Assembly (NCBI RefSeq): GCF_001447785.1
Contig: NW_015162487.1
Location: 875,255-939,254 of the forward strand
Origin: Gekko japonicus
Lineage: Eukaryota
Direction of reading: 5' to 3'
Length of the DNA stretch: 64,000 bases
The notes below the pieces were generated by a model. The model was given only the letters and a program-made list of their open reading frames with translations. It was not told the origin of the DNA and did not search any database. This document shows, piece after piece, positions 705-5,420 of this stretch. Position numbers and translations under genes: made by a program. The number at the start of each line of letters is the position of its first letter. The first letter of the stretch is position 1.

Positions 705-800
705 CGACGGACACAAAGAGGTAGCAGGCGGACAGGAAGATGATGGGCCGCTCCGGGTACTTGAACCTCTCCATGTCGATCAAGAAGGTGGCCACGGTGG
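705..800 (-). other. 96-bp exact inverted duplicate of FZD5 CDS 4400-4495
   Basis: Reverse complement matches 4400-4495 base for base ([31 protein letters not shown]). Confidence 0.93.
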
Positions 801-813
801 ACTTCCTCCGTGG

Positions 814-999
814 CAATGCTCCCTCTGAGCTGTGGAGCCTTGTGAGCAAAAATCCTACTTTGTGAGCTACTGGCACTAAAGTTGTGAGCGAGTGATTTGG
901 CCGCTGCACAACTTAGTTTGCTCTGGAGGCACATGTGTGAGCCGGAGGCTAAAGAACTGTGAGCTAGCTCACACTATCTCAGCTTAGGGGGAACAGTTG
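814..999. mobile_element. hAT-type MITE, family A (~200 bp)
   Basis: TIR CAATGCTCCCTCT...AGGGGGAACAGTTG; degenerate 8-bp TSD ctccgtgg/cttggtgg. Confidence 0.75.
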
Positions 1000-1257
1000 C
1001 TTGGTGGTCTCCCATCCTAGTCCTCACCAGGGCCGACCCTGCTTAGCTTCCAAGATCTGACGAGATCAGGCTAGCCTGGGCCAGCCTTCCCTGAAAACAT
1101 GCATAGGACGGCAGCCATGGGCTTGCGCTCGAATTAAAGTGTGGGCTTTCCTCAGAGGGTTTCATTAAGCTATGGCCGCGATGAAGATGTCATCCAAGCA
1201 TAGCGAGTGAGAGTTGAGGCCTCAGATTGCTGAGGGTGGACCTTAAATAGAAAACAG

Positions 1258-2780: not shown

Positions 2781-5420
2781 CCCTCTCCCCGGAGCTGGGA
2801 AAGGGGCGTCTCCCCGGCGGCGGCGCTGGGCGGTCCCGGGGGCCGGCCCGGCAGCGGCGCGCTTTAGAGCGCAGGTGGCTTCGGCGGGGAGCGCCAGTCG
2901 CCCGCGGTGGTGGTGGTGGCGGCGCTTGTGCGGCTGTCGGGGGCGCCTGTTGCCCGCAGCCAGCGGCGGGGTCGCCCCTTCCTCGCTCCGGGCCCACCTC
3001 GACCAACTCCAGGAGCCGGAGCCCGCCAGAGGATGCGGCGGCAGCCCGAGCGGTGGACGGGCCGCTCTCCGCCTTCTCTTCCTCCCGCTCCACGCGGCCG
3101 GCCCGGGAGCGCGGCCGAGCGGCTGCAGGGCGCCCAGCTCCGCCGGCCAACTTCCTGGCGAGCAGAGTGAAGCGGCGGGTCGGGGCCCGGGGAGCGCGTG
3201 GCGGCGGCGGCGGGCGGAGGGGCGTGCATGGCCGGGCGGGGCCGGGCGGCTTCCGAGGAAGGGACTTTTGGACTCTGCCGCTTGGAGACTTTCCAAGGCA
3301 ACTTTTCCCGGGCGGGATCCGGGGCTGCGCGGCCGACCTCGGCCCGCCTCTGCCATGGGCGGCTTCGTCTGGAGCGTGGTCGGGTTTAACCCCCCGTAAG
3401 GCACCTGCCCGGCCGGCCCCCGGCGGAGGGAGGGAGCGAGGGAGCAGCCCGGCGGCGGGGGCCAGACGCTGGTTCGGAGCATGTGCGCCTCGGAAAGGCC
3501 CCTGGAGGGAGACGCCGCCGCCGCCGCCGCGCCACGAGTCCCTCTGTCGGAGCGCCGCTGAGTCGTCGCCGTCTTCGCTTTTCCCAAGCGGCCCTGGGCG
3601 AGTGTGGCGGCTTGACCCCGGCCGAGGCTGCCGGCCATGGCCGGCTTCGGCCCCAGCCTGGGAGACACCCTGCTCGGCCTGTGGCTGCTCCTGCTGGAAG
3701 CCCCGGCGCTGGTGCCCGCCGCCTCCAAAGCCATCGTGTGCCAGGAGATCACGGTGCCCATGTGCAAGGGCATCGGCTACAACCTGACCTACATGCCCAA
3801 CCAGTTCAACCACGACACCCAAGACGAGGCCGGCCTGGAGGTGCACCAGTTCTGGCCCCTGGTGGAGATCCAGTGCTCGCCGGACCTCAAGTTTTTCCTC
3901 TGCAGCATGTACACCCCCATCTGCCTGCTGGACTACGCCAAGCCCCTGCCGCCCTGCCGCTCGGTGTGCGAGAGGGCCAAGTCGGGCTGCTCCCCGCTGA
4001 TGCGGCAGTACGGCTTCGCCTGGCCCGAGCGCATGAACTGCGACAAGCTGCCCGTCCTGGGCAACGCAGAGGTGCTGTGCATGGATTACAACCGGACCGA
4101 GGTCACCACCTTGCCCCCCTTTTTCACCAAGCCCACCCGCCCCTCCAGAGGTGGCCAGAAATACCTCCCCCCGTTAACGGGTCAGCATCCGCCTGGGGAC
4201 TGCCGGCGGGCCTGTGAGTGCCAGGAGCCCCTGGTCTTGATCTCCAAAGAGACTCACCCCCTCTACAACAAGATCAAGACAGGCAACGTGCGCAACTGCG
4301 CCATCCCCTGCTTCCAGCCCTACTTCACCCAGGACGAGAAGACCTTTGCCACTTTCTGGATCGGCCTCTGGTCCGTCCTGTGCTTCATCTCCACCTTCAC
4401 CACCGTGGCCACCTTCTTGATCGACATGGAGAGGTTCAAGTACCCGGAGCGGCCCATCATCTTCCTGTCCGCCTGCTACCTCTTTGTGTCCGTCGGCTAC
4501 ATCATCCGGCTGGTGGTGGGCCACGCCAGCGTGGCCTGCAACCAAGACTACAACCACATCCACTACGAGACCACGGGGCCGGCCCTCTGCACCGTGGTCT
4601 TCCTTCTGATCTACTTCTTCGGCATGGCCAGCTCCATCTGGTGGGTCATCTTGTCCCTCACCTGGTTCCTGGCGGCTGGGATGAAGTGGGGGAACGAGGC
4701 CATCGCCAGCTATTCCCAGTATTTCCACATGGCCGCCTGGCTGATCCCCAGCGTCAAGTCCATCGCCGTGCTGGCCCTGAGCTCGGTGGACGGCGACCCG
4801 GTGGCCGGCATCTGCTACGTGGGCAACCAGAACCTCGACAAGCTCCGGGGTTTTGTCTTGGCGCCTTTGGTAGTGTACCTCTTCACGGGGACCATGTTTC
4901 TGCTGGCGGGGTTCGTGTCCCTCTTCCGGATCCGGAGCGTCATCAAACAAGGAGGCACCAAAACGGACAAGCTGGAGAAGCTGATGATCCGGATAGGGAT
5001 CTTCACGGTGCTGTACACCGTCCCGGCGACCATCGTGGTGGCCTGCTACATCTACGAGCAACACTACCGGGAGAAGTGGGAGCGCGCCCAGAACTGTTCC
5101 TGCCCCGGGGACAAGCAGAAGCCGAAGCCCGATTATGCCGTCTTCATGTTGAAGTACTTCATGTGCCTGGTGGTGGGCATCACCTCGGGGGTCTGGATTT
5201 GGTCGGGCAAGACCCTCGAGTCTTGGAGGCGGTTCACAGGGAGGTGTTGCCAGAGTGGGAAGCCCGTGGGCACACCCATGTACAGCGACGCCAACACGGC
5301 TCTGACAGCACGGACCGGGGTGCCCAGTTCGGCTTCCTACCATAAACAAGTCCCCTTCTCCCATGTATGAAAGCAAAAGCGGCTTGCTCGTTGGGAGCAG
5401 GTAAGCGCGGCGTGACTCGA
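2781..5420. promoter_or_regulatory. CpG island covering FZD5 promoter/5' leader and CDS
   Basis: Very high GC and CpG density, GGC/GCC runs and GC boxes; the left edge is hidden by an N gap. Confidence 0.85.
3637..5370 (+). CDS. FZD5: Frizzled-5, Wnt receptor (577 aa, intronless CDS)
   Basis: Strong Kozak GCCATGG, signal peptide, Frizzled CRD (CQEITVPMCKGIGYNLTYMPNQFNHDTQDEAGLEVHQFWPLV), seven hydrophobic segments, Dishevelled-binding KTLESW (KTxxxW), C-terminal SHV PDZ ligand. NHIHYETTGP, the SHV end and absence of FZD8-type Gly-rich inserts favour FZD5; adjacency to CCNYL1 matches known synteny. Confidence 0.97.
   Translation: MAGFGPSLGDTLLGLWLLLLEAPALVPAASKAIVCQEITVPMCKGIGYNLTYMPNQFNHDTQDEAGLEVHQFWPLVEIQCSPDLKFFLCSMYTPICLLDYAKPLPPCRSVCERAKSGCSPLMRQYGFAWPERMNCDKLPVLGNAEVLCMDYNRTEVTTLPPFFTKPTRPSRGGQKYLPPLTGQHPPGDCRRACECQEPLVLISKETHPLYNKIKTGNVRNCAIPCFQPYFTQDEKTFATFWIGLWSVLCFISTFTTVATFLIDMERFKYPERPIIFLSACYLFVSVGYIIRLVVGHASVACNQDYNHIHYETTGPALCTVVFLLIYFFGMASSIWWVILSLTWFLAAGMKWGNEAIASYSQYFHMAAWLIPSVKSIAVLALSSVDGDPVAGICYVGNQNLDKLRGFVLAPLVVYLFTGTMFLLAGFVSLFRIRSVIKQGGTKTDKLEKLMIRIGIFTVLYTVPATIVVACYIYEQHYREKWERAQNCSCPGDKQKPKPDYAVFMLKYFMCLVVGITSGVWIWSGKTLESWRRFTGRCCQSGKPVGTPMYSDANTALTARTGVPSSASYHKQVPFSHV

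Follow-up and report, generated by a model that had tools for sequence, protein, structure and literature searches.

The locus and the donor gene

The stretch of Gekko japonicus DNA considered here (the window; 64,000 nt, numbered from its first letter) encodes on the plus strand, at 3637-5370, a single uninterrupted open reading frame of 577 aa. The top match of the predicted protein is Frizzled-5, the best solved relative (E 1.2e-281), and the runner-up is Frizzled-7 (E 3.2e-178). This agrees with an earlier reading of the same DNA (hereafter the original prediction), in which the gene was named FZD5.

A 96-nt copy of part of this coding sequence lies 3.6 kb upstream of the gene, at 705-800, with its sense on the minus strand and its antisense on the plus strand. 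As had been claimed, it is the exact reverse complement of a tract of FZD5 (4400-4495, plus strand, located by exact repeat comparison). The identity is 96/96, the match extends no further at either end, and 3,599 nt separate the inverted arms. The pair is the longest of the 60 exact repeats of at least 24 nt within the window. The donor tract codes for 33 residues, which we take to be TM1, ICL1 and TM2 of the receptor, and has a GC content of 59%. A search of the genome (2.49 Gb in 191,500 contigs) gave eight matches to the tract, of which two are exact and the remaining six are 76-90% identical. With the best paralog at 90% over the tract, a paralog is ruled out as donor, and the source is thus FZD5 of this locus.

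Insert and donor lie on opposite sides of a gap of 117 N (2664-2780), which has C-rich runs on either side and borders the GC-rich promoter; the spacing of the two therefore rests on scaffolding. Immediately upstream of the CpG island of FZD5 is a tandem array (2169-2494) of three copies of a ~99-100-nt unit that are 76-79% identical. The segments at 1842-1960 and 2041-2152 constitute a second local duplication in the window.

The host SINE and the junctions

The insert interrupts a 5S-rRNA-derived SINE that is encoded on the minus strand. The 3' part of the element lies to the left of the insertion (618-708) and the head to the right (1000-1097); they depart from the majority of 31 sister copies in 16 of 91 and 11 of 93 columns, respectively. 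The 5S derivation of the host, part of the original prediction, is upheld by a match of the head, read on the minus strand from 1097 to 981, to Rfam RF00001 (E 0.011; the 25.3 bits fall short of the gathering score, 38). Within 1 kb we identified a further fragment of the host SINE (1367-1457) and a second, truncated copy of the MITE described below (1693-1807).

The sequence of the empty site can be specified closely. The 31 sister SINEs, drawn from 1.264 Mb of the same scaffold, give C-G/A-A-C-CC-TGG, and the consensus of loose ends in the sequencing reads gives this empty-site continuation too, in all four of the runs examined. Compared with the family state, the insert replaces two C's of the SINE, with a net loss of 2 nt from the recipient and no duplication. 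There is no poly(A), as was originally stated. The replacement of CC and the sharing of TGG at the right junction (3 nt, 798-800) were also correctly predicted, as judged from the sister SINEs and the reads. The four-base CGAC proposed for the left junction (705-708) must be relaxed: its G is a variable site in the SINE family (G in 13 and A in 11 of the 31 copies), so the left microhomology is 2-4 nt rather than a fixed 4. CGAC occurs at 10 and TGG at 104 of 3,388 positions of coding sequence.

Two other features of the junctions were considered and set aside. The tetranucleotide GGAC occurs at 709-712 and again at 799-802, but is not a 4-bp target-site duplication because the left copy is encoded by the template, and the family state would require an earlier 3-nt deletion. 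A 10-bp palindrome spans the left junction (700-709) and is not significant, given that 548 of 3,276 control placements have a stem of at least 5 bp.

The MITE and a fold-back stem

Inside the same SINE is a MITE of 186 nt (814-999, plus strand), presumably hAT-like, with terminal inverted repeats and an 8-bp target-site duplication. It begins 14 nt to the right of the insert and differs from its family majority in 16 of 185 columns. Family comparison indicates that the right copy of the duplication, CTTGGTGG (1000-1007, plus strand), has the family state, and that the left copy, CTCCGTGG (806-813, plus strand), is changed from TG to CC at 808-809. The two copies match at six of eight positions.

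Owing to the TG>CC change, CCGTGGC at 808-814 is the reverse complement of GCCACGG at 791-797, within the insert. Compared with an intact copy of the duplication, the change lengthens the resulting fold-back stem (791-814, plus strand) from 5 to 7 bp and lowers the folding energy from -4.2 to -9.9 kcal/mol. In control placements of random FZD5 96-mers, a 7-bp stem with the flank arose in 18 of 3,276 cases, or in 74 of 3,276 if either side is counted. Among 47 other copies of the MITE with both ends present, the duplication is perfect in 25, has one mismatch in 11, two in one, three in one and at least four in nine. The mismatches of the sole two-mismatch copy are non-adjacent (adjacency was checked for this class alone).

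The original prediction had it that the duplication had decayed to 6/8. The count is correct, but the reading of it as decay, and hence as a clock, is probably wrong, as the change extends the stem. The TG>CC change in the left duplication is probably part of the insertion event. The stem, although noticed post hoc, is suggestive of an extra template switch in which the polymerase folded onto its own new strand, a behaviour reported for complex germline MMBIR-linked templated insertions (MMB-TI; PMC8421209) and for inverse-repeat insertions of polymerase theta (PMC7165422). More generally, a mismatched target-site duplication beside a repair scar is unsafe as a molecular clock.

Order of events and proposed mechanism

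The SINE is 12-18% diverged from its family majority. The probability that a 96-mer would remain untouched is 4e-5 at 10% divergence, and the 95% upper bound for the insert is 3.1% divergence. From the perfect identity of the insert, set against the diverged SINE and MITE, we infer the order SINE, MITE, insert. The comparison supports an insert younger than both elements, which is the part of the original claim of a very recent insertion that survives; the age itself is simply bounded, at less than 3.1% divergence with 95% confidence. The same figures rule out a chimera born during reverse transcription of the SINE.

We consider that the insert is probably a real and young scar, likely inert, left by a broken or stalled DNA end that switched templates. 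Described for the top strand, a 3' end in the SINE would have primed on the FZD5 sense strand via the 2-4 shared bases, and about 90 nt of FZD5 would then have been copied before a return to the SINE via TGG. A few bases farther on, the strand may have folded onto its newly made end, copying CCGTGGC and overwriting the TG of the MITE duplication, with rejoining at GTGGC. Alternatively, TG>CC could have come first and helped to choose the template. The polymerase activity implied would be switching of the MMBIR/FoSTeS type, perhaps with polymerase theta finishing the repair.

Real insertion or artefact

The most serious alternative is that the insert was created in the laboratory or the computer. 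A library chimera (a template switch during PCR or whole-genome amplification) or a gap-filling error could have placed a read-length piece of FZD5 in the assembly, in which case the animal has the empty site. The 100% identity and the length of 96 nt are both what such an error would give, and the spot is a nest of SINE and MITE sequence in an assembly of 191,500 contigs that carries exact duplications beside gaps. Three other direct duplications (171, 211 and 232 nt; all exact) end abruptly, and in each an arm comes within 0-36 nt of a gap; the FZD5 insert is inverted, and the nearest gap is 1,863 nt away. The exact direct duplications of 171-232 nt at or near N gaps (G000:C2777:1009348/1009520, 1004753/1005155 and 716560/716907) look like gap-closing artefacts.

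Several features of the insert are difficult to obtain by such a route. The two joins are 2 nt apart in the recipient and share only 3-4 bases with it, fewer than the overlaps used by assemblers; there is no gap within 1.8 kb; and the templated TG>CC change requires a polymerase. An extra templated switch of this kind is not something that an assembler would make.

Sequencing reads bear weakly on the question. We found 24 runs, in which the share of sampled words was at best 0.44 (0.29 in X3 and 0.26 in X4, shares that carry no weight as evidence), and depth was examined in four of the 24 (X1, X2, X7 and X22) over the left flank (250-728), where thousands of records from SINE paralogs swamp 650-713. 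In the bin just past the left junction (714-728), mean depth is 76.7 in X1 and zero in X2, X7 and X22. The three empty runs, together with the low share of sampled words in even the best run, favour an artefact, but holes in depth prove nothing here. Zero depth is expected 46% of the time in raw run X22, given its 0.78-fold coverage. In the unique flank (362-617) there is no contig in X1, X2 or X7, and X22 covers 346-569 at 1-2 reads. None of the 29 sampled repeat matches passes 708, and no listed read or contig from the four runs bridges either junction in the left flank examined. A junction record built with k=31 is predicted to span 679-734, with 50 letters inside the examined flank. As the shortest listed X1 piece has 54 letters, this fits the X1 record being unlisted, and the X1 depth at 714-728 is consistent with the predicted record. 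Alternatively, FZD5 itself could have contributed the unlisted record, as a piece of 24 nt. The X1 depth is weak support for a real insertion. The positive depth in X1 versus zero in the other runs may hint at polymorphism, with the caution that holes in depth are not proof. We did not find an alternative haplotig with the empty site; the flank at 360-640 has one match in the assembly, so the assembly is unable to show an allele.

Similar structures elsewhere in the genome also bear on this point. Two-copy pairs of 45-400 nt, spaced 0.5-10 kb apart, number 13 in 1.264 Mb, the FZD5 pair included. An extended sample of 1.864 Mb gave 12 without the FZD5 pair, which is masked there by added paralogs. 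Copy number was judged inside the sample (<0.1% of the genome), and some pairs may be low-copy repeats. About 13-15 such local pairs in 1.86 Mb indicate that the class is real, common and ordinary here, and their identities of 72-100% represent a range of ages, which backs a real class. A mild worry is that both exact pairs in the sample (87 and 96 nt) are near short-read length, as an artefact would predict (P ~0.12 for at least two, given a rough expectation of 0.6). The second exact copy (G000:C2777:547816 and 549529; 87 nt) is direct, with arms 1.6 kb apart, abrupt ends and gaps 6.8-8.5 kb away. Another direct local copy (G000:C2777:1209220/1211384; 108 nt, 99% identical) has a right end that resumes past a short insertion and is a candidate multi-switch scar. 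No look-alike windows were found in related genomes.

On balance, we hold with good confidence that the insertion is real. The original prediction regarded an assembly chimera as a real alternative; it is less likely than feared, and we retain an artefact as an unlikely explanation that nevertheless deserves to be kept in mind.

DNA or RNA as the template

If the insertion is real, the break could have been patched from FZD5 mRNA or cDNA rather than from local DNA, either as a class 2 templated sequence insertion polymorphism (TSIP) or by reverse-transcriptase-assisted repair. The donor is transcribed coding sequence, and top-strand synthesis would have used the sense strand as template. Furthermore, 17 RNA-derived templates are reported in human complex deletions (PMC4617611), and class 2 TSIPs are described as break-repair patches with microhomology that lack a target-site duplication and poly(A) (PMC5110952), a description that the FZD5 insert resembles. 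However, the donors of class 2 TSIPs are described as distant in that account, whereas here the donor is local and just two exact copies of the tract were found in the genome. Local DNA templating would account for a donor at 3.6 kb, a proximity that a diffusible RNA leaves unexplained. The divergence of the SINE (12-18%) also excludes a chimera formed at SINE insertion. No splice junction is available as a test: because the donor tract is intronless, an RNA template, or one reached through a promoter-gene loop, is indistinguishable from a DNA template. The short distance between insert and donor favours DNA, and we consider an RNA or cDNA template very improbable. Displacement of the FZD5 sense strand in an R-loop is likewise not favoured, as the donor tract has 23 G versus 34 C.

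Transcription and possible function

The original prediction suggested that plus-strand transcription across the insert would yield a perfect antisense to FZD5 mRNA. A 96-bp duplex is indeed possible by sequence, but transcripts from the SINE, or divergent transcripts from the FZD5 promoter, would be minus-strand and so contain sense rather than antisense. The reported T5 run separating the SINE head from the insert is present, on the minus strand, starting at 852. The nearest upstream plus-strand gene that we detected has Rubicon-homology exons and is presumably PLEKHM3, based on synteny. Its last domain match is ~60 kb away, and read-through from this gene was discounted. Plus-strand polyadenylation hexamers occur at 1133 and 1786, between the insert and FZD5. 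Among the literature matches listed for an FZD5 antisense or upstream lncRNA, nothing concerns this locus. A Rubicon-homology segment (positions 36-102, with two TAG) is matched both at G000:C2777:783787-783987 and on a separate contig (G000:C61702:767-967); the latter copy is possibly a haplotig or a false duplication.

For the insert to be functional, a plus-strand transcript over 705-800 would have to form a duplex with the mRNA of FZD5 (or, on read-through, within itself) and thereby tune the gene through dsRNA editing, silencing or blocking. The possibility of a perfect duplex speaks for this; the distance of the nearest plus-strand gene, the two hexamers and the sense orientation that minus-strand transcripts would have speak against it, and the insert is young, with no sign of selection. 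We see only a very slight chance that the insert functions in this way, and an equally slight one that a young, possibly still segregating insertion serves upstream of the promoter as a perfect 96-nt antisense target for FZD5 mRNA. The insert is likely inert.

The interest of the locus differs between these outcomes. Were plus-strand transcription to cross the insert, a Wnt receptor would have acquired a cis-acting dsRNA regulator in one mutational step; the antisense-target reading, if true, would allow a direct comparison of carriers with non-carriers; and an insert both polymorphic and transcribed on the plus strand would be a test of the de novo origin of antisense regulators. If real and inert, the insert is a clean germline multi-switch templated insertion whose empty site can be reconstructed from the ancestral sequence that the family of the host SINE provides.

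Comparison with known classes of templated insertion

The original prediction attributed the insert to polymerase-theta end joining or to replication template switching. A templated insertion joined by microhomology is supported, and a leading role for polymerase theta is not, given a tract of 96 nt from 3.6 kb away. The templated insertions (TINS) of polymerase theta are described as typically AT-enriched tracts of 3-30 bp whose template is flanking DNA, a distal template being used in <0.1% of repair (PMC7165422). The FZD5 insert resembles them in its 2-4 nt microhomology, its tiny deletion and the short inverse-repeat tract beside the join. It differs in being 96 nt long, 59% GC and copied from a distance of 3.6 kb. 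The inverted-duplication or MMBIR-type class fits such a tract better.

Germline MMB-TI of the complex class, as reported in PMC8421209, involve an inverted template copy, microhomology at the joins, several switches and a switch back to the initial template. The FZD5 insert is similarly an inverted copy with microhomology at its right (3 nt) and left (2-4 nt) joins and a return to the SINE. The classical rule given there places the template within 100 bp; the main template, at 3.6 kb, falls outside this distance, and solely the 7-nt fold-back falls within it. The insert thus behaves like MMB-TI and TINS while belonging formally to neither class.

By analogy, the geometry of the insert is best read as that of the human 'Inverted Dup' class, defined in the 1000 Genomes phase 3 data as inverted copies of <1 kb that lie within 5 kb of their counterpart and are not tied to retrotransposition; for complex sites, template switching with microhomology was proposed (PMC4617611). 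Here, 96 nt are inverted at a spacing of 3,599 nt (a distance that crosses the 117-N gap), with no poly(A) and a loss of 2 nt. The human cases described are verified by long reads and polymorphic, whereas the present one is known from assembly sequence, has a protein-coding donor and occurs in a genome of reptile type. Templated inverted duplications are thus a class already well described in human genomes; what is new here is the reading of the changed MITE duplication as one arm of a fold-back stem, and hence as the likely trace of an extra template switch.
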